A stretch of DNA of 32,000 nucleotides from an uncultured bacterium (GTDB lineage: Bacteria > Auribacterota > JACPWU01): the NCBI GenBank assembly GCA_964640155.1, contig CAZXEQ010000001.1:171256-203255 (forward strand). The letters are read 5' to 3'. Position 1 is the first letter of the stretch, and the number at the start of each line of letters is the position of its first letter. The notes below the pieces were generated by a model, which saw only the letters and a list, made by a program, of their open reading frames with translations, ran no database searches and was not told where the DNA came from. Shown here in pieces: positions 2-31,999 of this stretch. The translations under genes and the position numbers were made by a program.

Positions 2-1021
2 TTAACTTTCGTAGGAGACATTAATGGTGATCGTATAGATGATTTGGTTGTAGGTGCTCCTGATCATAGAGAGTATGATGCAATTTATTACCACGAATAT
101 CTTAATATTAATGAAGATGATTTATTAAATAATGTTCTTGTTTTTAGAGGTGATATGGGATACGGAAAAATTTTTATTTTTCTAGGTAATGAAGAGCGTA
201 CTTTACAGGTAAATCGTACTATTGTTGGAGATTTTCCTCGCTATTATCCTTGGCTTGGAGTAGCCGGGTTTATTACACATGATCCACGATCTGTAGCATA
301 TGTTTCTGAAGCACGCCCCTATTACTTTGATCATCGATTTACTGATCCTTATGCTGAAACAGTAGCCGCACGAACGGCTATTGGTCATGCAGGATCATTT
401 GGAGATACTATCTCTAAATTAGGTGATATTAATCATGATGGTTGTGACGACTTTCTAGTAGGCTATGGTTTTAGAGGTCATGTAGTTCTTTTTATGGGAA
501 GTCGCTCTTTAGGAATATTAAATGGTCTTAGAATAAGTAGAATTTTCGATAGAGGAACGTCTTCTTGTAATCCTAGCATTTCAGGTGGAGATATTAATGG
601 AGATGGATATGTAGATATTCTTTTAGGTATACCTACGTTTTTACTTCCATCTCTTTCTACTTCCAGACAGGGAGAAGTTAATTTAATACTTGGAGGTAGG
701 GATTGGCCAATAGGGATAAATGGTATTGAGGCAGCAACAGATATCCATTTTACAAGTGAAGCTGAAGGAGATTATGCCGGATATAGTGTTGCTGCTGTAG
801 GTGATATTGATGGAGATCAAAAAGAAGATATTGTCATTGGAGCCTATGGACATAATGAAATGGGAAGAGCTAGATCAGGTCGTTCATATGTCATTTTTGG
901 AGGAGAGCTTTTCCCTTCAAAGTCTTCCTCAGATTCAATCAAAAAGCTCGCTTCTTTTCCTACGTCCTTCTCTTTATTAAAAGAAAGTCAAACTTCAGAA
1001 GAAATAAAGAAAAAGAGTTAA
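2..1021 (+). CDS. FG-GAP (integrin-alpha-like) beta-propeller repeat protein, 5-prime end outside window
   Basis: Frame is open from nt 2 (LTFVGDINGDRIDDLVVGAP...), so the TTG at 44 is not the true start. Four Ca-binding FG-GAP signatures (GDINGDRIDD, GDINHDGCDD, GDINGDGYVD, GDIDGDQKED). TAA stop at 1019-1021. Confidence 0.85.
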   Translation, partial: LTFVGDINGDRIDDLVVGAPDHREYDAIYYHEYLNINEDDLLNNVLVFRGDMGYGKIFIFLGNEERTLQVNRTIVGDFPRYYPWLGVAGFITHDPRSVAYVSEARPYYFDHRFTDPYAETVAARTAIGHAGSFGDTISKLGDINHDGCDDFLVGYGFRGHVVLFMGSRSLGILNGLRISRIFDRGTSSCNPSISGGDINGDGYVDILLGIPTFLLPSLSTSRQGEVNLILGGRDWPIGINGIEAATDIHFTSEAEGDYAGYSVAAVGDIDGDQKEDIVIGAYGHNEMGRARSGRSYVIFGGELFPSKSSSDSIKKLASFPTSFSLLKESQTSEEIKKKS

Positions 1022-1237
1022 GGTTTTCTTACACAAACTAAGCTTTTTCAAGAATTATTATATTCTAGTTCTAGTCGTAGGCTTATTGTTTACTTGCGAT
1101 TTACTTTGGCGTGACACAAGGCCTTTAAAGGCATGGTATAGCGTAAGCAGAAGTGCAAAGGAGAAAATATTAAGTAGTAAAAGCACAGAATCTAATTTGT
1201 AGACATAAAAATTAAAAAATAGAAAAAGGAAAAAACA

Positions 1238-1324
1238 ATGAAAACGAAACTCATATTAATTTTATCTACCTTGCTCATCACAAGTCAGATAGCACAAGTT
1301 AAAGCGGTAGATTTTAACCTTTAA
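1238..1324 (+). CDS. 28-codon ORF encoding a Sec-type signal peptide, in frame with the downstream FG-GAP ORF (likely the severed 5-prime end of that gene)
   Basis: ATG at 1238 is preceded by AAAGGA about 9 nt upstream. Product MKTKLILILSTLLITSQIAQVKA/VDFNL has a basic n-region, a hydrophobic core and an AxA-like cleavage site. TAA at 1322-1324 is in the same frame (frame 2) as ORF 1367-3061. Confidence 0.4.
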   Translation: MKTKLILILSTLLITSQIAQVKAVDFNL

Positions 1325-1366
1325 CGCTCCAATGTAAAAATTGACGGAGAAAGCTATCAAAATCAT

Positions 1367-3061
1367 GTGGGTTATAAAACAGTTAAACTCGGTGATATTG
1401 ATGGCGACGGTCTTTCCGATTTTGCCATATCTACCATTGATTTACCAACTATGGCAGGGCGTGTAGGGATTTTTTTTGGGAGACGTGATAGCCGAGATTG
1501 GCCTGCAAATCTTACCTTGGGAAGAGCAGATGTTGTACTAACAGGAGAAATCAGCACAGATGTTGCTAATGGAGATCGTTTTGGTGAAAACATTGCAGGT
1601 GAAGGAGATTTCAATGGAGATGGTTATGGTGATATCGTCATTGGAGCACCTTGTAATGATAATAGCGGTAGAGCAAATGCCGGGAAAATCTATGTTGTTT
1701 TTGGCCGATCTAGAGCAGGCTGGTCTATGATCAGCGGATCCATTACCCGTGCAGCTGATATTACACTACTTGGCGAAAATTCAGGAGACCAAATGGGTCC
1801 TGTGGCTCTCGGAGATTTTAACGGCGATCGAATAAGTGATCTTGTTATTGGGGCTCCAGGTTATGATCCAATTGATCCTGCAGGTTATGGGCGAGGCGCC
1901 AATTATGGAAAAATTTATCTTTTATATGGTAGTACAGCTTGGCGATCATCCTCTTTAAGTCTGTCTATTTCATCTGTGGCTGATCTCAGCTATGGAATTG
2001 ATGTAAATACAGTTATTCCTCCTGGAATGAGTGGTAGTCCAACTGGTTTTTTTTACTGGTTCTGTTTTGGTAAATCTCTTTCTTTTGTAGGAGACTTAAA
2101 TGGAGATGGTTTTAATGATTTGGTGGTTGGAGCACCCGGATCTTCCTCTTTTTGGTATGTAGGAGGAGGTGTCAGAGGTTATTTTGTGTATGGTCGAGTT
2201 ATCATATTTCCCGGAAATAATCGACGAAATTTATCTCCTGCTTATGGTATTTCTGGTGATACCCCTGTTCATGCTGTTACAACACTCGGAGGAGGTCTAT
2301 ACCAACATTATTATTTTGATGCCACTAATCCAATTGATGGAGCAAATACTCGTAATGAAAATCGTTCATTTGGAGAAGTCATCTCTAAGGCAGGTGATAT
2401 CGATCACGATGGTTATGCAGATTTTTGGGTAGGTTACGGAGCTAGACCTTTTTTTGCCTTAATTAAAGGAGCTGCTAGCATACCTTCCATGAGAATTAAT
2501 GCTACTTTTGAGCAAAGTAATCAATTTTATAATATTTCACTTTCTTCGGGAGATGTAAATGGAGATGGTTGGGTTGATCTACTGGTAGGAAGTCCACATT
2601 TTAATTCCAGTTCTGGCTCTAGTGGAGAAGGACAAGCTTATTTACTCAGAGGAGGTCTGAGAGACTGGACAACCATTGCAAATATTGAACGTAATTTTGA
2701 CGTTCGTTTTATAAGCGAATCATATCGAGATCAAGAAGGTAAAAGTGTCGCCTTCGTTGGAGATGTGAATGGCGATGCAATAGAGGATATAGTCATTGGG
2801 GCCGACGGTTATAGCGGCACAGCTATAGATGCAGGTCGAGCTCATTTGATCTTCGGTAGCCGAACAGGTGGAATTTTTTCCTCAGTCACTTTTGAAGTGA
2901 TAGAGTATTACTCTCTTACTTTAGGAGGTTTTGATCCACGTCCTTGGCCTTACCAAAACTCAAAAATTACAAATGAGGATAAGATTGTTAATCCAGCAAT
3001 AACAGAAGAGAAAGTCGATACTACAAAAGAAGCTACTGTCGACTCTGTAAAAACTGAATAA
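1367..3061 (+). CDS. FG-GAP repeat protein, seven-blade beta-propeller; possibly a pseudogene or recoded gene starting at 1238
   Basis: 564-aa ORF with seven GD[IFLV][DN]xDxxxD signatures (GDIDGDGLSD, GDFNGDGYGD, GDFNGDRISD, GDLNGDGFND, GDIDHDGYAD, GDVNGDGWVD, GDVNGDAIED). The GTG at 1367 is only the first start-like codon after an in-frame TAA. No signal peptide if translation starts at 1367. Confidence 0.8.
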   Translation: MGYKTVKLGDIDGDGLSDFAISTIDLPTMAGRVGIFFGRRDSRDWPANLTLGRADVVLTGEISTDVANGDRFGENIAGEGDFNGDGYGDIVIGAPCNDNSGRANAGKIYVVFGRSRAGWSMISGSITRAADITLLGENSGDQMGPVALGDFNGDRISDLVIGAPGYDPIDPAGYGRGANYGKIYLLYGSTAWRSSSLSLSISSVADLSYGIDVNTVIPPGMSGSPTGFFYWFCFGKSLSFVGDLNGDGFNDLVVGAPGSSSFWYVGGGVRGYFVYGRVIIFPGNNRRNLSPAYGISGDTPVHAVTTLGGGLYQHYYFDATNPIDGANTRNENRSFGEVISKAGDIDHDGYADFWVGYGARPFFALIKGAASIPSMRINATFEQSNQFYNISLSSGDVNGDGWVDLLVGSPHFNSSSGSSGEGQAYLLRGGLRDWTTIANIERNFDVRFISESYRDQEGKSVAFVGDVNGDAIEDIVIGADGYSGTAIDAGRAHLIFGSRTGGIFSSVTFEVIEYYSLTLGGFDPRPWPYQNSKITNEDKIVNPAITEEKVDTTKEATVDSVKTE

Positions 3062-3123: not shown

Positions 3124-3744
3124 TTATTTCAAAACCTGTATTCGTGCTCTAGCTTTTCGCCCAACGAGAGAATTGGGCGCAAGCTCAGCAGCTTTAGAAT
3201 AAAAATTAATGGCTTGAGGTTTTCGACCTAATTGTTCCATTTTAACTCCTAATTTATAGAATTGCTCGGCTTTGCCAACTTGATCCTGAACATGAGTAGG
3301 TTCGGCAGAAGTTGAAGCTGTAACATGATTCACCTTCGGCTGTCCTTTGCCTTTCGTAATAGCTTCTTTTAAGAATTCAATCACTCTTGGCTTATCTGCA
3401 AATCCTACTTGCTTACGAATTACAGTTCCACTTGAGGACAAAAAAATAAGCGTGGGATATCCGTCCACTTGATAGTGCTGGGCTGTTGCCTTATCTCGAT
3501 CGCAATCAACTTTAATACAAATCATTTGCTGAGCTAAATTTTGAACATCTCCATCCGTATAAACTTGTGAATCTAATTTTTTACACCAGCCACACCAATC
3601 CGTATAAAAATCAATAAAAACAGGTTTTCCTGTTTGAGCAGCTTGCTGCATCCCTTTTTCATAGGAACTTTCCCAAACAATTGCCTCGGATAAGGAAGAA
3701 AAGATAAGAAAAAATAAAATAGATATAGAATATTTTTTGATCAT
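3124..3744 (-). CDS. Secreted thioredoxin-fold protein (CGWC active site) with C-terminal TPR-like segment
   Basis: N-terminal signal peptide MIKKYSISILFFLIFSSLSEA. Motif FIDFYTDWCGWCKKLD is typical of thioredoxin-like thiol:disulfide oxidoreductases. C-terminal AEQFYKLGVKMEQLGRKPQAINFYSKAAELAP is TPR-like. ATGA overlap with the upstream gene at 3741-3744. Confidence 0.85.
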   Translation of the reverse strand: MIKKYSISILFFLIFSSLSEAIVWESSYEKGMQQAAQTGKPVFIDFYTDWCGWCKKLDSQVYTDGDVQNLAQQMICIKVDCDRDKATAQHYQVDGYPTLIFLSSSGTVIRKQVGFADKPRVIEFLKEAITKGKGQPKVNHVTASTSAEPTHVQDQVGKAEQFYKLGVKMEQLGRKPQAINFYSKAAELAPNSLVGRKARARIQVLK

Positions 3745-5612
3745 ATTTTTATTTTTCGTCCTTCGTGTTCTAAGTTCAAGGTTCCAAGTTTAGTTTTTAT
3801 TATTTTCCATAACTGAAAATATTCTTCTTCAAATCCCTTTAAAACTGTTTCTAACTGTTCTGCTTTAACAGCATTACCCTCTTGAAGAAAAGATCTCACC
3901 TCTGGATCTTCATAAACAGATTTAGAAATAATCACATCATCTCCTGATGAATAATGCTCCAATCGCGCGGCCATATTCACCGTAGTCCCAAAATAATCCA
4001 ACCGATCATTCAACGTCACAGCAATACAAGGTCCATAATGAATGCCTGCTTTAAGAATTAAGGGGTCCCTCCCTTGAAAAGGTTCAGCCAAAATTCGCTG
4101 AGCCTCTAACATCGCTTGAAGAGCTTGAATGGGATGACGAAATACCGCCATCACCGCATCACCAATGGTTTTTACAAGAGCTCCCTCTTTTTCTGCAATC
4201 ACCTTCTTTAAAACATCAAAATGATTCATCACCAAACCAAAAGCGGGAGCATCACCAATCTGCCGATAAAGTTGTGTAGAATGACGCAAATCCGTAAAAA
4301 GAATGGCAAGGTTTCCGACAGAAATTTGTTGATCCGACCTTAAAATTTCTTTAGAAAAAAGGTCTCTGAACTTTTGAAGAGCAATCACTTCTGCTGCCGT
4401 CGCAGACTGATCTGTCCAAGCCATTCGTTCCAAAAAAACAAGTTGAGGAGAAGATGTTTCATTTTGAAAAAGAATTTTGGGAGAAGATGACAAAATTATT
4501 TCTTGATCTGACCAAGTCTCTTGAGAAAGTTTAAATGTTTTGGTTTTCTCCCCCTCTAACAGGACTTGAATGAATTGTTCCTTTGAATGATCAGGTAATC
4601 TTAAAAGATAACGCCCTATTTCAAGAGACAAGGAGACTTCGCGGCTTTCTCCGGCTTGAATCAATTGTTGAAGAACAATGTGAGGAGCATGTTGAGGACT
4701 TCCCATGCAAAATGTACGAATTTCTACTTTTCTAATGGCCGGATTGGGAGAAAAAACAACTTCAACCAATCTCTCAAAATTGACTGAAAAATCAATCTGA
4801 CAACCCCCGCAATGCATTTTAGATTCAATTTCACTCAAAGAATGAAGCGCTTCTCCACTTCCACGGCACATAGGACATAGCAAATTCCACCGTAATTCAA
4901 GAAGCCCTGCTCGTGTTGCCAATAAACAAAGTTCAAGCACTTCTCGACGGGGCACATTCCAAAAATCAGCTAAAACATAAGGTTTTATTTTGACCAAAGT
5001 CAAATCATCAGCTTCTTTAATCGTTTGAATAAGAAGATCCACTAAACGAGCGGAAACAGACTCTTTTAGAAGAGCCTCACGGACGATCTTCAGTCTTTCT
5101 TGTCCCCCGGCAGAGAGATTTTGTTTTCCAGAATAAAAAAAATTATTTTGTTCTTTTAAGGCCAATGAATCATATCGATGTAAAATTTTTTCGCAATCAC
5201 GCAAAAAAAGTCGAAATTGAATAGGAATCAGAAAAGCGCCCAAAATATTTTTGGGTTTAACCCAAATCTGATATATGACTTGCGTTCCATCCTCAGCTTG
5301 AGGAACAAGCTGAACTTGAACTCTGAAACTTTTAATCGGACCTTTTAAGTAATTACGCACCATTCCCAATCGGTGAGGACGAACCCATTCCGAAGGAAAT
5401 TCTTCCCATTCAAAGGGCACCCCAAAAAAAGAAAAACTTAATTTGCGTAAGTTTTTCTTTTGATTTTGATGAATCTGTAAGGAAGGAAGGCCTAGATCTT
5501 GATTCAAACGATTGGTATCAGAAACAAAAGGCCAAAGTTTTTCAGGAGATGATTTAAAAAACCATTTCCGCTCGTAATAGAGTTCTGATAGATTCATAAT
5601 CAATAAACTCAA
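3741..5612 (-). CDS. Class III adenylate cyclase with SRPBCC-like N-terminal domain and four-Cys zinc ribbon
   Basis: C-terminal cyclase motifs ILFTDLRHST, LVKTIGDAVMAVF, GIHYGPC, RLDYFGTTVNMAARLE. N-terminus SPEKLWPFVSDTNRLNQ. CPMC-x18-CGGC. Start is either TTG 5612 (TTGA overlap with the permease stop) or ATG 5597. Confidence 0.88.
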   Translation of the reverse strand: MSLLIMNLSELYYERKWFFKSSPEKLWPFVSDTNRLNQDLGLPSLQIHQNQKKNLRKLSFSFFGVPFEWEEFPSEWVRPHRLGMVRNYLKGPIKSFRVQVQLVPQAEDGTQVIYQIWVKPKNILGAFLIPIQFRLFLRDCEKILHRYDSLALKEQNNFFYSGKQNLSAGGQERLKIVREALLKESVSARLVDLLIQTIKEADDLTLVKIKPYVLADFWNVPRREVLELCLLATRAGLLELRWNLLCPMCRGSGEALHSLSEIESKMHCGGCQIDFSVNFERLVEVVFSPNPAIRKVEIRTFCMGSPQHAPHIVLQQLIQAGESREVSLSLEIGRYLLRLPDHSKEQFIQVLLEGEKTKTFKLSQETWSDQEIILSSSPKILFQNETSSPQLVFLERMAWTDQSATAAEVIALQKFRDLFSKEILRSDQQISVGNLAILFTDLRHSTQLYRQIGDAPAFGLVMNHFDVLKKVIAEKEGALVKTIGDAVMAVFRHPIQALQAMLEAQRILAEPFQGRDPLILKAGIHYGPCIAVTLNDRLDYFGTTVNMAARLEHYSSGDDVIISKSVYEDPEVRSFLQEGNAVKAEQLETVLKGFEEEYFQLWKIIKTKLGTLNLEHEGRKIKI

Positions 5613-6778
5613 AGTTCTCTTAGCGCCACCGCAATCTGTAAATTCGCTGCTCTTAACGCCGGAATCAATCCGCCTAAAAATCCGATTAACACTGAAAAAC
5701 TAATTCCACTCAAAAGAAGTCCTGGTGTGATTCTAAATGCAAAAGCCATTTGAGACCAAGTTTGCCAATTGAGAGTTGATGTTGTAAAACCATTCATGGG
5801 AATCACAATTACACAACCCAACACCCCTCCAATCAAAGCGATGAGAACAGATTCAAAAATCATCGACATAATTACCGCTCCTCTTCCAAAACCAATTGCA
5901 CGTAAAGTTGCAATTTCTCGAGAGCGCGCAGTCAAAGCAGAATACATGGTATTAAAAGCTCCAAAAATAGCACCGATGCCCATCACAATTGCCACAAGAT
6001 AACCTAAAACCTTAATCATAGACGAAACAACGCGTGATTGTTTTGCGTAATAGTCTGATTCTTTTTCAATTTGAACACTCAGACGTGGATCAGCCGATAG
6101 CGCATCTTTAAAATTAGAAAATTCACTAGGAGAAATGAGTCTCAATGTTAAAGAAGAAAAAAGATTTTCAGGTCGTTTATAAATTTGATTGAGCACTACC
6201 TGATCACACCACATTTCAGAGTCAAAAGAACTCCCCTTAGAATCCATAACTCCAACAACTTTCCAAACTTGTCCTCCAAAACGAGGAGTTGCCCCTAAAG
6301 ATAAACCCGTATAAATATCTTGGGCATGTTTTCCTACCACAAGCTCTGGTAGTCCTGGCTTAAAAAAACGTCCTTCAATGATTTTAACTTTGTCATGAAT
6401 TTCAAGCGCAAGAGGCGAGACCCCTCTTACTTGAGCTAAAGCATCCGAGTTTGATGCTTTATGATGAAAAGCAGCCACCACTACTACTTCAGGACTGATC
6501 AGGGCCTGCCCCTCTGAAGCTTGAGCGATGCCAGAAATGCTTGAAATCACACGAAGTTGGTCCAATGTCACAATACTATCCATCTCTGAAGTTGCTCCAG
6601 CTCGACGAATCATTACATTTTTGGGAGAACCTGATTCTACCAGAGTGGCCTGAAATCCATAAGCCATGGAAAGCATAGCGACAAAAATAGAGACCACACC
6701 TGCAATTCCCACAATAGCAGCAAAATTAGATGTCCAACGAACTCGAACACTTCTAAAATTATAAATAAACGGGACCAT
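5609..6778 (-). CDS. ABC transporter permease, FtsX/MacB family
   Basis: 389 aa. N-terminal TM helix, large extracytoplasmic domain, then three C-terminal TM helices with an FtsX-like motif (TARSREIATLRAIGFGRG). TAATG overlap with the upstream permease at 6778. Confidence 0.9.
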   Translation of the reverse strand: MVPFIYNFRSVRVRWTSNFAAIVGIAGVVSIFVAMLSMAYGFQATLVESGSPKNVMIRRAGATSEMDSIVTLDQLRVISSISGIAQASEGQALISPEVVVVAAFHHKASNSDALAQVRGVSPLALEIHDKVKIIEGRFFKPGLPELVVGKHAQDIYTGLSLGATPRFGGQVWKVVGVMDSKGSSFDSEMWCDQVVLNQIYKRPENLFSSLTLRLISPSEFSNFKDALSADPRLSVQIEKESDYYAKQSRVVSSMIKVLGYLVAIVMGIGAIFGAFNTMYSALTARSREIATLRAIGFGRGAVIMSMIFESVLIALIGGVLGCVIVIPMNGFTTSTLNWQTWSQMAFAFRITPGLLLSGISFSVLIGFLGGLIPALRAANLQIAVALREL

Positions 6779-7917
6779 TAGACCCTCCTCAAAGCATCAA
6801 CAATTTTAAGTCTCATCGCTAAAATCGCTGGAACAACGCCAGAAGCAATACCTACCATCACAGCAACCATCAAACCCAATCCTATTTTAAATGGAGATAA
6901 ATAAAAAAGAGGAAGAAATCCTCCCGTAGGATCTCCGCGCAATGTAAAAAGTTTGATTGCGGCAAGCCCCAAGCTTCCACCTAAAACACCATAGACTAAA
7001 GATTCAACCAAAATCAAAAATAAAACTGAAAAATCAGAAAAGCCTAATGTTTTCAAAACACCAATTTCTCCTGTACGCTCCCGTACCGACAAAGCCATGG
7101 TGTTTCCTGTCACTAATAAAAGTGTAAAAAATACGACCCCACCAATTGAAAGAATTAAAAGTTGTATATTCGCAATTTGTTTTACAAAAGCCATGTTAAA
7201 TGATTTCTCTGTTTCAGCAGCAGTCTCATAAGGAGAATTAACAAATCGTTCATCAATGGCATGCGTAATCTCTGCAACATGGTCGATATCTGCTATACGA
7301 ACGGTATACCAGCCCACCGTCCCCTTACTATATTCGCGCCTTTCTTCTAAATAATCCCATCGAAGCCAGAATTGAGTAATGTCATCTTCACGACGTTTCC
7401 CATCATAAATACCCTTCACATTAAATTCCCAGGTCCCTCCCCAAAGCGGCGCCATTAAGGGAATACGATCACCAATTTTCCAATGATATTTTTCTGCGGT
7501 AGCTCTACCCACAATACATCCTTCTTTATCTTTAAGAAATTCATCCCATTGATCTTTCAAAACTGTGAATTCAGGATACATTTCAAGCCAGTTCTCTTTA
7601 TCAATTGCAAATTGTGCAAACCAATTTTTTTCATTTTGATATACACCGCCAAACCAAGTTGCAAATGAAACGGTTTTCACTCCTGAAATTTGTGAAATTC
7701 TGTCTTTGTAAGCATAGGGCAAAGGCATAATCAACGATGTCTTGTTTCGAACAATCAAACGATCTACGCCTGCGACTGTCACACCTTGAGTAAAAGCAGT
7801 TTGAATCGTGCCCAATAAACCAAAGAGGAAAAGAGCAACAGCAAAAGAGCCAATGGTTAAAAAAGTTCTAACTTTTTTTCGGCCAAGATTAGCCCACAAA
7901 AGAGGCCAGAATTTCAT
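6778..7917 (-). CDS. ABC transporter permease, FtsX/MacB family (second subunit)
   Basis: 379 aa with the same topology ([21 protein letters not shown]..., VRERTGEIGVLKTLGFS). ATGA overlap with the ATPase gene at 7914-7917. Confidence 0.9.
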   Translation of the reverse strand: MKFWPLLWANLGRKKVRTFLTIGSFAVALFLFGLLGTIQTAFTQGVTVAGVDRLIVRNKTSLIMPLPYAYKDRISQISGVKTVSFATWFGGVYQNEKNWFAQFAIDKENWLEMYPEFTVLKDQWDEFLKDKEGCIVGRATAEKYHWKIGDRIPLMAPLWGGTWEFNVKGIYDGKRREDDITQFWLRWDYLEERREYSKGTVGWYTVRIADIDHVAEITHAIDERFVNSPYETAAETEKSFNMAFVKQIANIQLLILSIGGVVFFTLLLVTGNTMALSVRERTGEIGVLKTLGFSDFSVLFLILVESLVYGVLGGSLGLAAIKLFTLRGDPTGGFLPLFYLSPFKIGLGLMVAVMVGIASGVVPAILAMRLKIVDALRRV

Positions 7918-8639
7918 ATGTGAGCACCGCTCCTTTTTGCTTCAACCAAAACCCCTTTTTCTAAATGTAAGATTGTGGTCACACGCTCAGCGGCTCTGGG
8001 ATCATGCGTTACCATCAAAATGGTTTTGTGATGGGATTTTGAAAGCTCGACCAAGAGATCCATAATTTCATCTGCACTCTTACGATCCAAATCGCCTGTG
8101 GGCTCATCGCATAATAAAAATGTAGGATCAGTCACAATCGCTCTGGCAATGGCAACGCGTTGTTCTTGTCCCCCCGATAGCTGCCGAGGATAATGACGCA
8201 TACGATCTTGAAGTCCCACCAAAGTCAAAGCTGTTTCCACATGCTTACGACGTTCTACCTTTGATAAATTTGTTAAAAGCAAAGGAATTTCCACATTTTG
8301 AAAAGCCGTCAAAACTGGAATCAAATTATACATTTGAAAAATAAATCCCACATGCCGTGCCCGCCAAGCTGAAAGCTTAGCACGTGACATCTTATTAATC
8401 TCATCGCCTGCGACAGTAATGCTTCCAGAGCTTGGAATATCCAATCCACCTATCAAATTTAAAAGAGTGGTTTTTCCAGAACCCGAGGGTCCCATAAACC
8501 CTACAAACTCACCTTGAGTCACATCCAAATTAAGGCCTTGAAGCACATGAATCTCTTCACTGCCTCTTTGATATTTTTTATCTAAATTCCTAACTTGAAT
8601 CAAAACCTGATTGGAATTATTACCATTCAAATGAACCAT
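7914..8639 (-). CDS. ABC transporter ATP-binding protein, MacB/LolD type
   Basis: Walker [11 protein letters not shown]-loop, signature [14 protein letters not shown], Walker [13 protein letters not shown]-loop VTHD. Confidence 0.95.
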
Positions 8640-8656
8640 ATTCTTTTCCCTTATGT

Positions 8657-9886
8657 TTAAGAAATCACTTTTACTTTCTGCCCATCTTGCAAATTTTTAG
8701 GAGGATTGATGACCAATTGTTCACCAGGCAAAACCCCAGCTATAATTTCTAAATCTGTACCACTGATGCCACCGGTTTTAACAGCTCTTTTTTCAATTTT
8801 TCCATCCTTTAGGATAAAAACAATTTTTTTGCCGTCTTGCTCAGATAAAGTATCTTGAGAAATCAAAGCCCTCACTTCATTTTGTTTGTCAGAAGTTTGT
8901 TCGCTTAAAAAAGAAACTTTCACTCCCATATCTGGAAGAATCTTTGGATCTAAAGCATCTAAAGCAATACGAACTTTCACCGTTGCCTTTTGTCGATCTG
9001 CTGTGGGGATCACTGTTCTCACTTTTCCAGGCATATGCCAATTGGGATAGGCATCTAACGTCGCTTCTACAGGCTGGCCAATAGCAACCTTTGCAATATA
9101 AGATTCACTCACATCCACTTCTATTTCTAAAGAAGACATATCCACAATCGTTGCAATGCCTGTTCGCGTAAAGCTTCCACCCGCTGACATAGGAGACACA
9201 ATTTCCCCCACTTGAGCATCTTTAGAAACAGCAATTCCTGAAAACGGAGCACGCACAATACAGTTTTCAATCTCGCGCTGAGCTACTTTCAGTTTTGCCT
9301 CTGCAGAACTTACTTGATTTTTAGCCAGCTCCAATCTTGCCTTCAGGCCATCTAATGTTGCTTGAGCTTTTTCTAAACTTTGAATATCTACAATTTTATC
9401 TTTTTCTAAAACCTTCATTCGTTTAAGGACACGATCTGCCTCTTCAAGATTTACTTCTAATTCTGGAATACTTGAAAGAACAACTTTACGTTCAGCCTCA
9501 GCAGCTGCATACGCAGCCTGAGCATCTGAATCATCGAGTCGAGCCAAAATCTGATCTTTTTCAACTTTCATCCCTTCTTCAACCAGCATTTCACCTACAC
9601 GCCCCGTGATCTTCGTTGCCAAAGTAGATCGCACCCGAGGCGTCACATACCCACTTGCACTCAAAACAGTTGATGCCCCTGTTCCAATAGGTGCTCGCGC
9701 AGTAGTCACTTTCACTTTTACGGTTGAACGACCCAATATCGAAATGAATATAAGAATGATGATAAAGCTTAATGCCCCCCAAAGAGCATATTTTTGGGTC
9801 TTTCGACTTTTGGGTTTGTATTTTGCCTCTGCATCAATTTTGAGAGCAGAAATACGTGTAGAAGAGGTATCTTTAACTTCTATCAT
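8657..9886 (-). CDS. HlyD-family periplasmic adaptor (membrane fusion protein)
   Basis: 409 aa. N-terminal TM anchor (YALWGALSFIIILIFISILG), lipoyl-like hairpin, long coiled coil (AYAAAEAERK...AKLKVAQREIE) and beta-barrel C-terminus. Confidence 0.9.
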   Translation of the reverse strand: MIEVKDTSSTRISALKIDAEAKYKPKSRKTQKYALWGALSFIIILIFISILGRSTVKVKVTTARAPIGTGASTVLSASGYVTPRVRSTLATKITGRVGEMLVEEGMKVEKDQILARLDDSDAQAAYAAAEAERKVVLSSIPELEVNLEEADRVLKRMKVLEKDKIVDIQSLEKAQATLDGLKARLELAKNQVSSAEAKLKVAQREIENCIVRAPFSGIAVSKDAQVGEIVSPMSAGGSFTRTGIATIVDMSSLEIEVDVSESYIAKVAIGQPVEATLDAYPNWHMPGKVRTVIPTADRQKATVKVRIALDALDPKILPDMGVKVSFLSEQTSDKQNEVRALISQDTLSEQDGKKIVFILKDGKIEKRAVKTGGISGTDLEIIAGVLPGEQLVINPPKNLQDGQKVKVIS

Positions 9887-10025: not shown

Positions 10026-10883
10026 CTATGAAATAGCTTTTAGGCTCTTGTTAAACTCTTTCGTAAAATTTCCTTCAAATACACTACTGACATCTCCTGT
10101 CATATGTACGCCATTATCAGAAATCTCAATATCAATCACACCGCCAGGCATATGAACCTGAATATTTTTATCAACCAAACCAAGTCGATAAGCAGCACTA
10201 GCCGCTGCGCAACTGCTACTTCCTGAAGCAAGTGTGTAACCTGCTCCCCTTTCCCAAATCTGGATTTCTATATTTTTACGATCTCTTACCTTTAAAAGTT
10301 GCATATTAATTCTTTTGGGAAAAGATGAATGCTTTTCAACATGAGGGCCCATTTCTTTTGCCAAGGATTCTGAAATTTCAGAGAGAGGAATAACACAATG
10401 GGGATTGCCAATCGAAAGGCAAGTCACCTTAAATGTTTTACCATTTATGTTTAATTCTTCGTTCACCACTTCACGAGCAGGACCTTTTATAGGGATTAGT
10501 TCACTTTGAAAAGTGACTTTCCCCATGCCTACCTTAATACGACTGGCTTCTTTATTCAAAATCTGAACATCCACATTCCCACCCAATGTTTTTAATTGAA
10601 ATTTTGTCTCTTTGACATACCCTGCTTCTATAAGATATCGAGAGAAAATTCGAATCCCATTGCCACTTTTCTCAGCTTCGCTTCCATCTGGATTAAAAAT
10701 CTTGAGTGATACCACCCCCTTTTCAAGAATAGGCCCATAAAGAATCCCATCGGACCCGACTCCAAAATTTCGATGACAAATGAGACGAATAACTTCCTCA
10801 TTTAATTTGATTTTTGTTTTCTGAGGATCTATCACAAGATAGTCATTACCCAACGCATGATATTTATAAAAATCAATGCTCAT
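10026..10883 (-). CDS. Diaminopimelate epimerase (DapF)-fold protein lacking both catalytic cysteines
   Basis: DapF motifs YHALGNDYLVID, IFNPDGSEAE-x-GNG, SIGNPHCV, WERGAGYT. Ser73 and Ser220 occupy the positions of catalytic Cys73/Cys217 of E. coli DapF. ATG 10883 overlaps the upstream antiporter gene by 11 nt. Confidence 0.8.
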   Translation of the reverse strand: MSIDFYKYHALGNDYLVIDPQKTKIKLNEEVIRLICHRNFGVGSDGILYGPILEKGVVSLKIFNPDGSEAEKSGNGIRIFSRYLIEAGYVKETKFQLKTLGGNVDVQILNKEASRIKVGMGKVTFQSELIPIKGPAREVVNEELNINGKTFKVTCLSIGNPHCVIPLSEISESLAKEMGPHVEKHSSFPKRINMQLLKVRDRKNIEIQIWERGAGYTLASGSSSCAAASAAYRLGLVDKNIQVHMPGGVIDIEISDNGVHMTGDVSSVFEGNFTKEFNKSLKAIS

Positions 10884-12552
10884 TTGTCTCTCCGCTCATC
10901 TGTTCTTTTTGAGTCACTTGTTCTAAAAAATTAGCCAAATATTCTCCTGCCATAATATATGGAAGTAGAACCTCATTGGCCCCTGCCACCTTTAATTTTT
11001 CGGCTTGTTCTGTCGAATCTGCCGTCGCAACAATCAACGCCTCTGAAGCCAAAGAACGACAGGCTCTGACAATACTAAGGTTATTGGTCCCTTTCAAAAG
11101 CATATCCGGAATAGTTGAAAGAATCACTTGAGCATGATTTAAATGTGCATGATCTAAAGTGTCCAGACTGCTGATATCGCCAAAAAGACCGTTAATTCCA
11201 AGCCGTTTTAATTCCTTCAAAACTTCTAAATTAAAATCAATCACCAAAACTTCTTCAAGCATTTGAGGATTTTTCTGAGCAATGATTTCGATCAAAGATC
11301 TTGCTCCTCGATGAAATCCAAGGATGATAATAGAATACACGTGTTCTCTTCCCTCTTCCTCATTTTCTATTTTGATTTTCCACCCTAGCTTACCCAACAT
11401 ACGCTGAAAAACCAAATAAAGCTCATGATTGTATTTAATAAAATAGGAAGTCAAAATGGATGTAAATGCCATGGTATAAATAAGCGTCGCCATCAAATCA
11501 GGATGAATATGCCCATAGCTCACTCCCAAAGAAGCAATCACAAGTGAAAATTCACTGATTTGAGCAAGATTCACACTCGAAATAAAACTTGTTCTTCGGC
11601 CAGCACCCGAAATCCTTAAAAGAGGATAAACACTTAAAAATCTTGATAAAATCACAAAAGCTACCAACATCAAACTTGTCATAATCATCGAGATTTGAGG
11701 CTCGACAATTTTCATTCCCAAAGAAACAAAAAAAAGCGTCATAAAAAAATCTCGTAAAGGAAGAGTCTTGGCCGTGACATGAATGCTATAGGGGAAAGTT
11801 GAAATAGAAATTCCCGCAATCAAAGCACCCATCTCTTTGGAAAGCCCTAGCGCCCCTGCCCCATAAGCCACAAGTGCGCACCAGCCAATGGAAACAGCCA
11901 CAACCATTTCAGGAGATTTTGCAATCCATTTGTAAACTTGGCTTAAGAAAAATTTACTAAAAAGAAAACCTGCTACAAGCAGAATAATACTTTTGAGAAT
12001 GGCCCATAAAAAAGGCCCCGCCGCAGGATGAGCAAAATTAGGTTGAATGGCTAAAACTAAAATCGCCCATAAATCCTGAATGATCAAAACCCCAAGGGTA
12101 ATGCGTCCTGGAAGCGTATCAAATTCGAATTTATCATAAAGCAGTTTGACTACAATGGCTGTACTACTCAAAGCACAAAGAATCGAAAGATAAAAGCCAT
12201 CAATATTGGATCCTCGAATTAAGAAACCCAACCATGGAAAAACAAGCAGACCCAACCCCACGCAAAGAATAAATTGCCCCACCCCTGTTACAAGCAATTG
12301 CTTCCCTGACGCAATCACTTTCTGAACATTGAGTTCCAGACCAATGATAAAAAGAAGGAGAATTAATCCAATCTCAGAAATGATTTCAATATTAATGGGA
12401 TCTGTAACAAGCTTGAAACCAATACTAGGCCCAATCAAAGCGCCTGCCAGTAAATATCCAAGAATAATCGGCTGACGCAAGCGATGCATGATCACACCTA
12501 AAAGTGTGGCTGCAATGATAGATAGACCTATGTTTTCAAGAAGACCGTGCAT
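10873..12552 (-). CDS. CPA2-family monovalent cation:proton antiporter (Kef-type) with C-terminal RCK/TrkA-N domain
   Basis: 559 aa. About 12 TM helices with typical Kef/CPA2 N-terminus (QPIILGYLLAGALIGPS). C-terminal Rossmann-like domain (IIILGFHRGARSLIEII...). Confidence 0.88.
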   Translation of the reverse strand: MHGLLENIGLSIIAATLLGVIMHRLRQPIILGYLLAGALIGPSIGFKLVTDPINIEIISEIGLILLLFIIGLELNVQKVIASGKQLLVTGVGQFILCVGLGLLVFPWLGFLIRGSNIDGFYLSILCALSSTAIVVKLLYDKFEFDTLPGRITLGVLIIQDLWAILVLAIQPNFAHPAAGPFLWAILKSIILLVAGFLFSKFFLSQVYKWIAKSPEMVVAVSIGWCALVAYGAGALGLSKEMGALIAGISISTFPYSIHVTAKTLPLRDFFMTLFFVSLGMKIVEPQISMIMTSLMLVAFVILSRFLSVYPLLRISGAGRRTSFISSVNLAQISEFSLVIASLGVSYGHIHPDLMATLIYTMAFTSILTSYFIKYNHELYLVFQRMLGKLGWKIKIENEEEGREHVYSIIILGFHRGARSLIEIIAQKNPQMLEEVLVIDFNLEVLKELKRLGINGLFGDISSLDTLDHAHLNHAQVILSTIPDMLLKGTNNLSIVRACRSLASEALIVATADSTEQAEKLKVAGANEVLLPYIMAGEYLANFLEQVTQKEQMSGETNEH

Positions 12553-12742: not shown

Positions 12743-13318
12743 TCACAAAGCTAAGGTCTTCTCAATACGACGATCTGGAACAAGCCAGATAATCGCTACC
12801 AAAACATATACCGCACAAGCAATCCATGCTTTCACAAAACAAAGAGGAATAGCTGCAGCATACAACATCAATGATATTTTCCCTTTAAAATCACTTCCCA
12901 GTGCAATTGCTAGAACAGAATCCTTTGTATGTATAGAAAGAAGGGCTCGCGTCAAAATGAAATACGCAATTGCAGAAAATAACAAGACCATTCCATACAA
13001 AGCTACTGGCCAGGATGCAAAATGATTTTCACCCATCCAAGCCGTAACAAAGGGAATAAGAGAAAGCCAAAACAGCAAATGTAAATTAGCCCAGAGAACA
13101 CGTCCATCCACATGTTTAACGGCTTGAAGCAAATGATGATGATTATTCCAATAAATGCCCAGAAAGATAAAACTCAAAATATAACTTAAAAACACAGGGA
13201 TCAATGGGTGCAATACTATTAAATCTGAGCCATGAGGCACTTTCAACTCAAGCACCATGATAGTAATAATAATTGCAACCACGCCATCACTAAAGGCTTC
13301 TAATCGGCTCTTTGTCAA
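12743..13318 (-). CDS. TMEM175-family (DUF1211) putative potassium channel
   Basis: 191 aa, six predicted TM helices. Family signature RxxxFSD in TM1 (SRLEAFSDGVVAIIITIMVLEL). TTG start at 13318. Confidence 0.8.
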   Translation of the reverse strand: MTKSRLEAFSDGVVAIIITIMVLELKVPHGSDLIVLHPLIPVFLSYILSFIFLGIYWNNHHHLLQAVKHVDGRVLWANLHLLFWLSLIPFVTAWMGENHFASWPVALYGMVLLFSAIAYFILTRALLSIHTKDSVLAIALGSDFKGKISLMLYAAAIPLCFVKAWIACAVYVLVAIIWLVPDRRIEKTLAL

Positions 13319-25279: not shown

Positions 25280-26818
25280 TTAATAAACAATTTTATAATG
25301 ATCGATTTGAATCTCTAAATCCTTCTCAATCTTAATATTTCCCTTTAAGGCTTTTTCAATAGGGATAAGAAGTTGTTTATGTTCTGTCAAAAGCTTCTCA
25401 GCAACCTTAGGATGAAGAATGATTTTGATCATTTCCACTTTTTTCTTAGCAACGATATTTCTTGCTTCACGAATAACTTCAAGAATAATACTGGTCCCTG
25501 ATTTAATGGTTCCCAGACCTGTGCAAACAGGACAGGCTTCGTAAAGTTGTTTGTTGGTACTCTCTTGAACACGTTGGCGAGTCATCTGTACAAGCCCAAT
25601 CTCACTGATAGGAAGAATATTGGTCTTCGCTTTATCTTTACGCAAAGCCATACGCAAACGCTGCAAAACTTTCATTTGATCACGTTTGGATTTCATATCA
25701 ATCAAATCAATGATGACGATACCTCCCACATTACGTAATCTCAATTGTTTGGCCACTTCTTCGACGGCTTCCATATTGGTGTCTAGAATGGTCTCTTCCA
25801 AATCACTTTTACCCACATTCCTTCCAGAGTTCACATCAATGGCCACCAACGCTTCTGTCTGCTCAATGATTAAATAACCTCCTGTTTTGAGCCAAACTTT
25901 GCGATCAAAAATCTTTTTGATTTCTTTCTCAATCCCTAAATGTTCAAAAAGAGGTTCAATTCCTGAGTAAAGCTCAACCTTCGATCTTAATCGGGGAAAT
26001 ACAGCACTCACAAATCTCATAATTTTTCGATACTCATCGCGCGAATCCACAACCAATTTTTCAACCAATTCTGTGAAAGCATCTCGAATGGTTTTTAAAA
26101 CCAAATCATATTCCACATGCAATGCACTTGGAGCGGGATATTCTTTAAACCGATGTTCTATCTTTTTCCATAAACTGATCAAATAGCGAATATCCCTTAA
26201 AAAATACTTCTTATGCATTTGATCACCCACGGTACGAATAATGACTCCCATATTTTCAGGAAGTCGTATCGACCAGAGGATTTCTCGTAAACGAGACCGT
26301 TCAGGCTTATCCATGATTTTGCGCGAAATTCCACGTCTCGGATCATCAGGAAGCATCACCAAATAACGACCTGGAAGACTGATATTGGTAGAAAGTCTCA
26401 CACCCTTGGTTCCAATGGGATCTTTAATAACCTGAACAATCAGTTCTTGCCCAGGTTTTACCAGTTCATCAATAGAAGCTTTTTTGGCAGGACGCTCGGG
26501 TTGTTTATGATGTACATGTGGATGAGGATGAGTTTCATTAACCTCTTCTTCCATTTCTTCATCCAAAATATCTCGATAGGCTTCGGATGGATTCAAAATA
26601 TCTGAAACATGAAGAAATCCATTTTTCTCAAGACCTACATTTACAAATGCAGCTTGAATACCAGGAACAACATTTTCAACAATTCCTTTATAAATACTCC
26701 CCACCAAACGTTTATCTGTTTCTCGCTCAATGCTAAAATCCTCAAGCGTTCCATCATTTAGAAACGCAATTCTTTTTTCTAAACCTTCACTGTTAATAAC
26801 GATTTGTTTTTTTGACAT
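25280..26818 (-). CDS. rng: Ribonuclease G/E family endoribonuclease
   Basis: S1 domain (GSIYKGIVENVVPGIQAAFVNVGLEKNGFLHVSD). Catalytic AIDVNSGR and IVIIDLIDM motifs. ATG 26818 is preceded by GAGGAGA at 6-nt spacing and is preferred over the TTG at 26836. Confidence 0.92.
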   Translation of the reverse strand: MSKKQIVINSEGLEKRIAFLNDGTLEDFSIERETDKRLVGSIYKGIVENVVPGIQAAFVNVGLEKNGFLHVSDILNPSEAYRDILDEEMEEEVNETHPHPHVHHKQPERPAKKASIDELVKPGQELIVQVIKDPIGTKGVRLSTNISLPGRYLVMLPDDPRRGISRKIMDKPERSRLREILWSIRLPENMGVIIRTVGDQMHKKYFLRDIRYLISLWKKIEHRFKEYPAPSALHVEYDLVLKTIRDAFTELVEKLVVDSRDEYRKIMRFVSAVFPRLRSKVELYSGIEPLFEHLGIEKEIKKIFDRKVWLKTGGYLIIEQTEALVAIDVNSGRNVGKSDLEETILDTNMEAVEEVAKQLRLRNVGGIVIIDLIDMKSKRDQMKVLQRLRMALRKDKAKTNILPISEIGLVQMTRQRVQESTNKQLYEACPVCTGLGTIKSGTSIILEVIREARNIVAKKKVEMIKIILHPKVAEKLLTEHKQLLIPIEKALKGNIKIEKDLEIQIDHYKIVY

Positions 26819-26828
26819 TTTTATCTCC

Positions 26829-27932
26829 TCAGACAAAAGATTTTCTTAAATGAATGTTTTGTAAAAATCCAAGACAGGCCATCATGGCCAACAAATGTGA
26901 TCCTCCATAACTCATAAAAGGAAGAGGAATTCCCGTAATCGGCATAATTCCTATCGTCATTCCTGTATTGATAATGACATGGGAAGCAATTAATAAGCTT
27001 AAACCCACTGCCAAAAATCTTCCAAAAAGATCTTCACAATTACGTGCAATCTTAAAACCCGACAACAAAAAGGCAATATATCCAATCAAAACAGCCCCAC
27101 ATCCTAAAAATCCCCATTCTTCTCCCACAACAGAAAAAATAAAATCCGTATGACGCTCCGGCAAAAAATGAAGCTGACTTTGAGTCCCTTGAAGCCAACC
27201 TTTTCCATATAAGCCACCAGACCCCACAGCAATTTTTGATTGAATGGCATTGTATCCTGCACCTAAAGGGTCCATATTGGGATTAATAAAAACGAGCAAA
27301 CGTTGACGTTGATATTGATGCAGCACACTCCATCCTATAGGAAGAATGGCTAACCCAATCGCTACAATAGCCAAAAGATATCGCATTCTTGCTCCAGCCA
27401 CAAAAAGCATACCCATCAGCACAGGAATCAAAACAAGTGCTGTTCCTAAATCAGGTTCTAACATAATAAGCCCTATAGGCAAACCTGCTAAAAGAAGTGT
27501 AAAAATCACATATCGCATTTTAGAACGATCTTCCGATCGATCGGCCAAAAACCTAGCAAGCATGAAAACGATTCCTATTTTTGAAAGTTCTGAAGGCTGA
27601 AATGCGAAGGGGCCAATATCAAACCAACTGCGAGCTCCTTTGTGAACACTTCCAATAACTAAAACTAATATAAGAAGAAACAAACTGACCATATAGAAAA
27701 AATAGGCCATGGAACCTACCGTGCGAAAATCAATTTTTAAAATAAAAACAAAGAGACTCATTCCTAATCCTAACCAAATCATTTGCTTATAGACAAAAGC
27801 ATCTCCACCCGGCGTTCTATAAGTCGCGCTATAAATAAAAAGAAGGCTTACTGACAGAAGAAAAAAAACAGTCAAAAGCATTCTGAAATCTAAAAATCTG
27901 AAAATACGAAAACTGTTCATGATTGAAAACAT
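26829..27932 (-). CDS. rodA: Peptidoglycan glycosyltransferase RodA (SEDS family)
   Basis: 367 aa polytopic SEDS protein (QPSELSKI, HTDFIFSVVGEEWGF, PLPFMSYGGS). Alternative ATG 27920 gives an ATGA overlap with the mrdA stop. Confidence 0.93.
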   Translation of the reverse strand: MFSIMNSFRIFRFLDFRMLLTVFFLLSVSLLFIYSATYRTPGGDAFVYKQMIWLGLGMSLFVFILKIDFRTVGSMAYFFYMVSLFLLILVLVIGSVHKGARSWFDIGPFAFQPSELSKIGIVFMLARFLADRSEDRSKMRYVIFTLLLAGLPIGLIMLEPDLGTALVLIPVLMGMLFVAGARMRYLLAIVAIGLAILPIGWSVLHQYQRQRLLVFINPNMDPLGAGYNAIQSKIAVGSGGLYGKGWLQGTQSQLHFLPERHTDFIFSVVGEEWGFLGCGAVLIGYIAFLLSGFKIARNCEDLFGRFLAVGLSLLIASHVIINTGMTIGIMPITGIPLPFMSYGGSHLLAMMACLGFLQNIHLRKSFV

Positions 27933-29680: not shown

Positions 29681-30134
29681 AACGCGTCCTAAAGATTCGA
29701 TTAAGTACCGGATAAATAAAAATAGATAAAATTGCCGTCTTCAAAGCCACGCCCAATGAATGAGAAAAAAGCGACGGCCTCATCACTCCTTGCAAACAAT
29801 AAAAAAGCCATTCAAGATTCAAACCTAAAAATATTCCCACGAAAACCATCATCATGCGGGCTATCATATGTTGCTGATAAATGACAGAATGAAACAGTCC
29901 TACCAATACACATGCTCCCACCAAAGCAAGCGTTTTAGAACCCAAAGGTGCGCCTGATAAACTGTCCCAAATCAAACCACCCAACAAAGCAAAAATCGAG
30001 CCCTCCAACCAATTAAATCTCAAAACAAAATAAAAAGAAAATAAGCCTAATAAGTCAAAAGCATCACAAAGTCGATATTGACTTTGAAAAAGAATCACCC
30101 CAAATACTAAAAAAAACTCTTTAATCCATCTCAT
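29658..30134 (-). CDS. mreD: Rod shape-determining protein MreD
   Basis: 158-aa polytopic membrane protein lying between mreC and mrdA. Call rests on position and size. Confidence 0.8.
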   Translation of the reverse strand: MRWIKEFFLVFGVILFQSQYRLCDAFDLLGLFSFYFVLRFNWLEGSIFALLGGLIWDSLSGAPLGSKTLALVGACVLVGLFHSVIYQQHMIARMMMVFVGIFLGLNLEWLFYCLQGVMRPSLFSHSLGVALKTAILSIFIYPVLNRIFRTRYEQWMAS

Positions 30135-30143
30135 TTCAAAAAC

Positions 30144-30968: not shown

Positions 30969-30970
30969 GT

Positions 30971-31999
<1,029 letters not shown>

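Follow-up and report, generated by a model that had tools for sequence, protein, structure and literature searches.

A large subfamily of DapF homologues with serine at both catalytic cysteine positions

The stretch of DNA analysed here (the window) comprises 32,000 nt of contig CAZXEQ010000001.1, from the uncultured bacterial assembly GCA_964640155.1, and carries at 10026..10883 on the minus strand an intact open reading frame (ORF) encoding a 285 aa homologue of the diaminopimelate epimerase DapF. DapF, an antibiotic target whose inhibitors alkylate its cysteines, is a classic example of an enzyme that works with two of them; the protein in the window resembles it, is well folded and full-length, and has serine in place of each catalytic cysteine. 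It is a DapF by profile, fold and ligand pocket, and is not one by the defining catalytic dyad. The initial annotation treated this as an oddity of a single genome, a view that does not hold: the Ser/Ser proteins form a large, ancient and monophyletic subfamily under strong purifying selection, a widespread variant of a known family that has apparently not yet been described. Judging by their conserved contact residues, they almost certainly still bind diaminopimelate (DAP), and we tentatively suggest that they may be thiol-free isoforms of DapF that still interconvert LL- and meso-DAP.

Sequence and fold of the protein in the window

The Pfam model DAP_epimerase (PF01678) matches two domains in the 285 aa protein (E=2.3e-57), and the NCBIfam DapF model TIGR00652 gives a full-length match over residues 3-273 at 246.7 bits, more than double its cutoff of 114.65. 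The protein is equal in length to canonical DapFs, with which it has 36-40% identity, and its HMMER alignments to solved structures from Anabaena (9MRO, E=1.2e-56), Arabidopsis (3EJX) and Haemophilus influenzae (2Q9J and 2Q9H) run from end to end, with E values of 1e-56 to 4e-48. In these alignments S73, within EKSGNG, lies opposite the cysteine of MCGNG or QCGNG, and S220, within LASGSSS, lies opposite that of LACGTGA; these are the positions of catalytic Cys73 (in E. coli and H. influenzae numbering) and Cys217 respectively. The codons, read directly from the minus strand, are AGT for Ser73 (10665..10667) and TCA for Ser220 (10224..10226).

An AlphaFold2 model of the protein, for which 44 clade sequences served as input, reached a pLDDT of 96.6 and a pTM of 0.92, and has the pseudo-symmetric two-domain alpha/beta fold of DapF with its two central active-site helices. 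The top Foldseek match of the model is the closed form of the Anabaena enzyme, 9MRO (TM 0.89/0.91, root mean square deviation 2.1 Å). Ser73 and Ser220 immediately precede helices 74-86 and 221-233, and it is likewise at helix N-termini that the catalytic cysteines of DapF sit (PMC12039745). Both the alignments to solved structures and the positions of these helices therefore uphold the initial annotation in placing serine at the two catalytic cysteine positions, and the codons it gave are also correct.

That the serines stem from a sequencing or assembly error, or that this is the decaying pseudogene of one metagenome-assembled genome (MAG), is scarcely credible. Beyond the unusual residues themselves nothing speaks for it, and against it stand the intact ORF, an identical protein in an independent Logan assembly, and the same residues in hundreds of genomes, cultured isolates included. 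The motifs EKSGNG and [AS]-S-G-[ST]-S-S are both present in 120/120 of the nearest homologues, and both serines are found in every one of the 234 clade members compared below, such that error and pseudogene are ruled out by conservation across the clade; the initial annotation had argued against a single base-call error from the TCA codon. Hence the Ser/Ser feature is real and statistically unassailable.

Extent of the Ser/Ser clade and its conserved active site

The nearest relatives, taken as the best 120 matches among 5.8 billion proteins, are 64-81% identical to the protein in the window and come from Chlamydiota, Halanaerobiales (Orenia), Peptococcaceae (Desulfotomaculum and Desulfosporosinus), Bacteroidota, Spirochaetes, Omnitrophota and WOR-3. 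A phmmer scan over 1.84 billion representatives clustered at 50% identity found 2091 relatives at E<=1e-30; amongst the best 150 of these, 124 are Ser/Ser, and Cys/Cys sequences first turn up at about 38% identity. When patterns specific to Ser/Ser proteins were run against a set in which each GTDB species is represented by one genome, such loci were confirmed in the genomes of at least 589 species, belonging to a dozen phyla. The carriers include the Lachnospiraceae genera Blautia, Dorea, Hungatella, Lacrimispora and Faecalicatena, along with Christensenellaceae, Sporomusa, Pelosinus, Pirellulales, Sedimentisphaerales, many Verrucomicrobia, Polyangiaceae, and one genome each labelled Nitrospira, Ktedonobacter and Okeania. 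Samples associated with humans contain the gene in great abundance, as some of the Blautia-type clusters at 90% identity (P0477, P0586, P0585 and P0494) hold 450-1970 sequences from gut metagenomes.

Whether Ser/Ser homologues form a clade was a question raised by the initial annotation, and in a neighbour-joining tree they do: all fall in a single clade with no Cys/Cys member inside it. Four representatives within the clade have hybrid active sites, of the Thr/Cys, Cys/Ser or Ser/Cys type (P0200, P0247, P0256 and P0267), and may be intermediates or partial reversions. All the solved DapF structures matched by HMMER or Foldseek are either Cys/Cys or engineered single mutants, and our literature search found neither a description of natural Ser/Ser DapFs nor biochemistry on any member of the clade. 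NCBIfam has no separate model for these proteins, so annotation pipelines label them 'diaminopimelate epimerase'.

The residues of 234 Ser/Ser and 147 Cys/Cys sequences were compared position by position, a smaller set being used for the ligand contacts. Ser73 and Ser220 are accompanied by a series of further changes near the active site. Position 15 is Tyr in 97% of the Ser/Ser sequences and Phe in 99% of the Cys/Cys ones, the motif GNDF thereby becoming GNDY (codon TAT, 10839..10841); the residue replaced, Phe13 in canonical numbering, is by our motif alignment the probable equivalent of F22 in the G-N-D-F motif of the Chlamydia trachomatis enzyme, one of the residues lining its pocket (PMC5885031). 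Position 223 is Ser in 95% of the clade (codon AGC, 10215..10217) and Gly in 100% of the Cys/Cys set, where it corresponds to Gly220, or Gly227 in Anabaena; the backbone NH of the latter hydrogen bonds to the sulfur of catalytic Cys224 (PMC12039745). Position 79, the third conserved cysteine (Cys79 of GNGxRC) in 99% of canonical sequences, is Ile in 97% of the clade (10647..10649). Directly before Ser73, position 72 is Lys in 89% of the clade (codon AAA, 10668..10670), with R, I, V, M and L also seen; 99% of the Cys/Cys sequences have Met here, as is usual in the plant, cyanobacterial and Firmicute type. Position 222 is Ser in 88% of the clade and Thr in the Cys/Cys set, a two-residue Gly-Pro insertion at positions 50-51 is specific to the clade, and Gln195, Ile209, Met245 and Val265 are other highly conserved, clade-specific positions. 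On these alignments three cysteines have gone from the active-site region (C73S, C217S and C79I) and hydroxyl and amine groups have been gained.

The ligand pocket, by comparison, is intact. Residues N13, N64, G74, N75, N160, H162, N193, E211, R212 and G221 are each conserved in 96-100% of the clade, and the full complement of canonical contacts is present (Asn11, Asn64, Gly74, Asn75, Asn157, Asn190, Glu208, Arg209, Gly218 and Ser/Thr219, together with His159, in canonical numbering), as the initial annotation had concluded from motifs. In the four hybrid sequences Cys220 always occurs with Gly223 and Ser220 always with Ser223, a consistent pairing which indicates that the two positions are coupled. 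Amongst 88 related loci the codon at position 73 is AGY in 82 cases and TCN in six, and that at position 220 is TCN in 72 and AGY in 14. The dominant serine codons at both positions are each one step from TGY; since both serine codon families occur at both positions, selection has long been for serine itself. The invariance of both serines, and the fixation of further active-site changes alongside them, argue against a decaying pseudoenzyme. Hence, given also the coupled Ser223, the retained His and Glu helpers and the intact DAP pocket, the site seems to be in use.

It could be supposed that a thiol mechanism is restored by a cysteine from elsewhere (Cys225, Cys163 or Cys36) moving into the active site. 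Cys225 shares a helix with Ser220, five residues further on, and Cys36 and Cys163 are highly conserved. However, position 225 varies within the clade (C, S, A, V, L, T, I or G), which rules out Cys225 as the real catalytic residue, a case the initial annotation had named as one that would overturn its reading; Cys36 and Cys163 are conserved to the same degree in canonical Cys/Cys DapFs, and are thus not compensatory. Furthermore, Ser73 and Ser220 lie at helix N-termini in the alignments and predicted helices, and the model superposes at a TM of 0.89 with no large-scale shift. We therefore regard this explanation as very improbable, and the clade has no conserved substitute thiol.

Genomic context across the clade and in the window

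Nine of the best 150 representatives at 50% identity are fusion proteins. The Ser/Ser domain is joined to the diaminopimelate decarboxylase LysA (TIGR01048, 360 and 410 bits against a cutoff of 297.9), to the DAP-adding enzyme MurE (NF001126, 433.6 against 373) and to the alanine racemase Alr (TIGR00492, 379 and 247 against 168), with GGACT, methyltransferase and partial GNAT domains in other cases. The fusion ORFs were confirmed on metagenome contigs, the DapF-MurE arrangement in two independent samples. A MAG of the Polyangiaceae has a row of three genes on one strand, in which dapL (TIGR03542, 545.6 bits against 364.7) and then a lysA-like gene (256 bits, below the cutoff) come after the Ser/Ser gene. 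The gene immediately upstream is ddl in Hungatella and Lacrimispora, and the Blautia loci have hom and an aspartokinase gene four to five genes downstream. Such fusions and neighbours are what would be expected of an enzyme supplying meso-DAP; the fusions and the Polyangiaceae row link the clade to the making or use of meso-DAP, a connection that the initial annotation had not foreseen.

Over 80 genome loci as a whole, no operon partner was found to be conserved across phyla, the contexts being specific to lineages. A divergently oriented AraC-family regulator with a cupin ligand-binding domain is found at 17 loci, in Lachnospiraceae and a Pelosinus genome (e.g. L014, L017, L020, L044, L047 and L073). 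Amongst the Planctomycetes, small GNAT acetyltransferases flank the gene in Pirellulales and Sedimentisphaerales (L012, L015, L018, L019 and L026), and one representative ORF (P0216) joins a GNAT C-terminus to the Ser/Ser domain, which hints that an acetylation step is tied to the protein in this phylum. SppA and an AhpC/TSA protein are encoded near the gene in Verrucomicrobia. Two contexts were each seen in one genome. The Nitrospira-labelled MAG has a full lysine-fermentation cluster (L029, 6349-12123) 2.5-9 kb from the Ser/Ser gene and on the opposite strand, encoding the alpha and beta subunits of lysine 5,6-aminomutase, a KamA-family aminomutase, 3,5-diaminohexanoate dehydrogenase, a Kce-like cleavage enzyme and 3-aminobutyryl-CoA ammonia lyase; this single case may be coincidence. 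In Desulfotomaculum arcticum, genes for a glycyl-radical enzyme and its radical-SAM activase (L003, 10890-14198) are oriented convergently with the Ser/Ser gene, a GntR regulator lying beyond them.

The number of DapF homologues per genome differs between carriers. We take 'Bacteroides' xylanolyticus to be a misnamed member of the Lachnospiraceae, of the Lacrimispora/Hungatella type. A published survey lists two DapF homologues each for this organism, Blautia hansenii, B. producta, B. wexlerae, Dorea formicigenerans, D. longicatena and Hungatella hathewayi, with Ddh listed for all of these genomes as well (Ashniev et al. 2022, PMC9026213, Table S2). One of the two copies adjoins dapL in Dorea, Hungatella and 'B.' xylanolyticus, the second dapF being 18 genes away in the last of these; a single homologue is given for Akkermansia, Christensenella minuta and B. 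hydrogenotrophica (PMC9026213). The paired entries are peg.231 and 2298 in D. formicigenerans ATCC 27755, 2229 and 1909 in D. longicatena, 2262 and 2334 in H. hathewayi DSM 13479, and 1328 and 1883 in B. wexlerae DSM 19850; C. minuta is listed with DapL only and without Ddh. The Ser/Ser loci that we retrieved from these Lachnospiraceae genera have no dapL within 10 kb, and in B. wexlerae peg.1883 is five genes from LysC (peg.1888), the same order as that around the Ser/Ser gene of Blautia. With two DapFs listed, one adjoining dapL, and the Ser/Ser loci lacking it, the Ser/Ser gene appears to be an extra paralogue in these Lachnospiraceae. No second DapF was found within 10 kb of any Ser/Ser locus.

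These contexts bear on a first alternative, namely that the protein is a neofunctionalised enzyme which binds DAP or a close analogue, such as a hydroxy-, acyl- or thioether-bridged diamino diacid or a DAP-containing muropeptide fragment, and catalyses something other than two-base epimerisation. Coexistence with a second, dapL-linked homologue in Blautia, Dorea, Hungatella and Lacrimispora-type genomes speaks for this, as do an active site that is invariant and yet remodelled (Y15, K72, S223 and Y216), the ligand-responsive AraC regulator adjoining at the 17 loci, and the GNAT flanks, GNAT-DapF ORF and GGACT fusion. Proteins predicted to be DapF have turned out to have other substrates in the cases of HisR, CntK and DcsC (PMC11602996; PDB 7VDY), and Foldseek finds the same fold in hydroxyproline dehydratases. 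However, the residues contacting the distal and proximal ends of DAP are all kept, unlike in HisR, CntK and DcsC; partner enzymes of a new pathway, conserved across phyla, were not found at the 80 loci; and the LysA, MurE and Alr fusions and the row with dapL and the lysA-like gene fit meso-DAP supply better than a side reaction. Moreover, the dehydratase precedents of which we are aware keep one thiol. Neofunctionalisation is possible, though on balance rather doubtful.

In the window itself the Ser/Ser gene is not associated with DAP, lysine or peptidoglycan genes. Its start shares 11 nt (10873-10883) with the end of an upstream gene on the same strand, 10873..12552, which encodes a CPA2 (Kef-type) cation:proton antiporter with a TrkA_N domain (Pfam Na_H_Exchanger and TrkA_N; CPA2, KefC and YbaL models are the best NCBIfam matches, all below cutoff). 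The overlap is as initially annotated, and the pairing of antiporter and Ser/Ser gene is kept in the three closest relatives (81%, 72% and 70% identity), with an overlap or gap of at most 12 nt; two of these are MAGs named 'Chlamydiota bacterium'. The antiporter had been called an unusual partner for dapF: the coupling is real and conserved in the lineage of the window, in four genomes including this one, and it is absent elsewhere among the 80 loci. Just upstream of the antiporter gene is a homologue of the TMEM175-family potassium channel (12743-13318, minus strand), such that two potassium-transport genes stand in a row ahead of the Ser/Ser gene.

Downstream, also on the minus strand, are a MacAB-like efflux cassette at 5609-9886 (membrane-fusion protein, 8657-9886; ABC ATPase, 7914-8639; two FtsX/MacB permeases, 5609-7917), a protein with DUF5939 and class III nucleotidyl cyclase domains (3741..5612), and a thioredoxin-fold protein (3124..3744) in a place comparable to that of AhpC/TSA in relatives. 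In both Chlamydiota MAGs the DUF5939-cyclase gene directly follows the Ser/Ser gene and is itself followed by an AhpC/TSA gene, and the MacAB-like cassette therefore looks to have been inserted. Synteny between the window and GCA_016196885.1 extends over about 20 kb, and on this and on 70-72% identity to proteins of the 'Chlamydiota bacterium' MAGs the organism is probably a related bacterium of Chlamydiota type. In nine genomes, drawn from four phyla, a thioredoxin-fold gene is found no more than 3 kb from the Ser/Ser gene, the density of such genes being 0.022 per kb near the gene and 0.0023 per kb farther away, a comparison biased by the picking of seeds from nearby genes and by the relatedness of several genomes.

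Elsewhere in the window is a complete cell-elongation cluster on the minus strand at 25280-31987, composed of mreB (30971-31987), mreC (30144-30968), a 158 aa ORF that is possibly mreD (29658-30134), PBP2/mrdA (27917-29680), rodA (26829-27932) and an RNase G/E-family rng gene (25280-26836); all but the possible mreD score above their NCBIfam cutoffs. The presence of mreB, mreC, PBP2 and rodA implies that the organism makes peptidoglycan, as had been deduced from PBP2 and RodA. At 44-3061 on the plus strand, opposite to nearly everything else, are two ORFs with FG-GAP/VCBS repeats and faint matches to TcdB_toxin_midN.

The signalling and transport neighbours of the lineage of the window, a Kef-type antiporter with a regulatory TrkA_N domain and the DUF5939 cyclase, might suit a second alternative, in which the protein is a non-catalytic pseudoenzyme that senses or sequesters LL- or meso-DAP, or makes protein-protein contacts, the serines being kept to hydrogen bond the ligand. 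The loss of the thiols from an otherwise retained ligand pocket and the paralogy in Lachnospiraceae are compatible with such a role, and there is a precedent in E. coli DapF, which activates RppH non-catalytically (PDB 6D13; PMC6061791). Against it, the strict conservation of His162 and Glu211 and the covariation of Ser220 with Ser223 are seemingly more than binding needs, the LysA, MurE and Alr fusions are expected of a metabolic enzyme, and the Kef and cyclase context is limited to one lineage; we consider it unlikely. The proposal of the initial annotation, a neofunctionalised DAP-binding enzyme or a pseudoenzyme, gains some support from the Lachnospiraceae paralogues, but a pseudoenzyme in decay is at odds with the invariant serines and the changes fixed with them.

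A possible thiol-free epimerase, and its relation to known systems

The canonical mechanism, which employs a thiol and a thiolate (PMC12039745), cannot operate in a Ser/Ser protein. The closed two-domain fold and the complete pocket for both amino-acid ends of DAP are kept, however. If the clade interconverts LL- and meso-DAP, which we tentatively rank first among the readings considered, Ser73 and Ser220, at their helix N-termini, would act as the proton-transfer pair. Ser223, Tyr15 and Lys72 could assist them, hydroxyl and amine groups being fixed around the reaction centre by Tyr15, Ser223 and, usually, Lys72 and Tyr216. An enzyme of this kind should be immune to being switched off, whether through oxidation of the cysteine pair to a disulfide or by thiol-alkylating electrophiles. 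That canonical DapF is open to the former is shown by structures of the Corynebacterium glutamicum enzyme in its oxidized and reduced states, which are among the Foldseek matches. In some lineages the Ser/Ser protein might then be the working DapF, where it is fused or adjacent to LysA, MurE or DapL; in others it might be an additional copy under regulation of its own, alongside the canonical gene linked to dapL. A role linked to stress would fit the coupling to a Kef-type potassium/proton antiporter and the thiol-redox genes nearby in the window. Escape from disulfide formation and alkylation would rationalise the second copy, the loss of the third cysteine, and the Kef, AhpC and thioredoxin neighbours alike. 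The more specific proposal, that this is the first natural cofactor-independent amino-acid epimerase to use two serine hydroxyls, evolved as a route to meso-DAP that is proof against oxidation and electrophiles, is less probable.

Several considerations weigh against the protein being a thiol-free epimerase. We know of no natural Ser/Ser cofactor-independent amino-acid racemase, and alkoxide or hydroxyl chemistry is harder to set up than that of a thiolate. When cysteines are engineered to serine in this enzyme class, turnover drops greatly (PMC11602996; PMC12039745); our literature search turned up nothing on the kinetics of C73S or C217S. Outside a few lineages the Ser/Ser gene is not in DAP operons, and at most of the 80 loci no DAP, lysine or peptidoglycan gene is near it. 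In the Lachnospiraceae discussed above it appears to be a second copy beside the dapL-linked one, whose Cys/Cys status is assumed, and an active site that is altered yet invariant points, in a paralogue, to a different task. An AraC-type regulator is also more typical of inducible than of housekeeping genes, and the bias in the enrichment of redox genes counts here too.

Either a thiol-free way of working exists in this enzyme class, or hundreds of genomes carry a mislabelled gene. What is at issue is a large natural clade that lacks the thiols, has an intact DAP pocket and is annotated everywhere as 'diaminopimelate epimerase', and which includes abundant human-gut bacteria of the genera Blautia and Dorea as well as Verrucomicrobia, Planctomycetes, Spirochaetes and Chlamydiota. 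Were these proteins active, they would represent a new catalytic solution for the abstraction of an unactivated alpha-proton and a ready-made resistance to thiol-directed DapF inhibitors, being immune, for instance, to the cysteine-alkylating aziDAP. Were they not, pathway reconstructions that count them as DapF would give incorrect calls of lysine prototrophy and predictions of peptidoglycan in hundreds of species, and a new function linked to DAP would still be waiting to be discovered.

With canonical DapF (EC 5.1.1.7; Anabaena 9MRO, Arabidopsis 3EJX, H. influenzae 1BWZ and 2GKE) the protein has in common its fold, length, DAP contacts and His and Glu helpers, along with the placing of the reactive residues at the N-termini of helices 2 and 4. 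It differs, as does its clade, in that both catalytic cysteines are Ser and Cys79 is Ile, in the changes of Phe13 to Tyr, Met72 to Lys and Gly220 to Ser, and in the Gly-Pro insertion. Serine at a catalytic cysteine position on the same fold is otherwise found in the C73S and C217S forms of H. influenzae DapF (PDB 2Q9H and 2Q9J), which are among the top matches to the protein, and in HisR C67S/C209S; these, however, are single laboratory substitutions that hinder catalysis, whereas in the clade both serines are natural, invariant and accompanied by further fixed changes.

More distantly, replacement of a catalytic cysteine in homologues of proline racemase has changed the reaction, giving rise to hydroxyproline dehydratases, rather than killing the protein. 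The trans-3-hydroxy-L-proline dehydratases (PDB 6R76 and 4K7G) have the same superfold as the protein in the window, with fold matches at TM of about 0.65-0.75. Those enzymes have a different substrate pocket and keep one cysteine, whereas here neither catalytic cysteine remains, and membership of the proline-racemase family is ruled out by a score of 19.9 bits against the cutoff of 27 for Pro_racemase (PF05544). The bifunctional DapF/glutamate racemase of C. trachomatis (NF038284) is a DapF homologue from the phylum of the nearest named relatives, but it keeps C72 and C207 and has a remodelled pocket (PMC5885031); identity with it is excluded by a score of 53 bits against a cutoff of 350 and by the missing catalytic cysteines.

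The E. coli DapF that activates RppH (PDB 6D13) illustrates a role of the same scaffold that is independent of epimerisation, yet it is still a Cys/Cys epimerase, and no link to RppH was seen here. Deletion of dapF leaves the growth of E. coli unimpaired, and DAP secretion by the mutant serves as a read-out (GapMind 2026 preprint). The histidine racemases HisR and CntK and the O-ureidoserine racemase DcsC, which are likewise annotated or predicted as DapF and yet are functionally different, have an altered pocket but both cysteines, the reverse of what is seen in the Ser/Ser clade.

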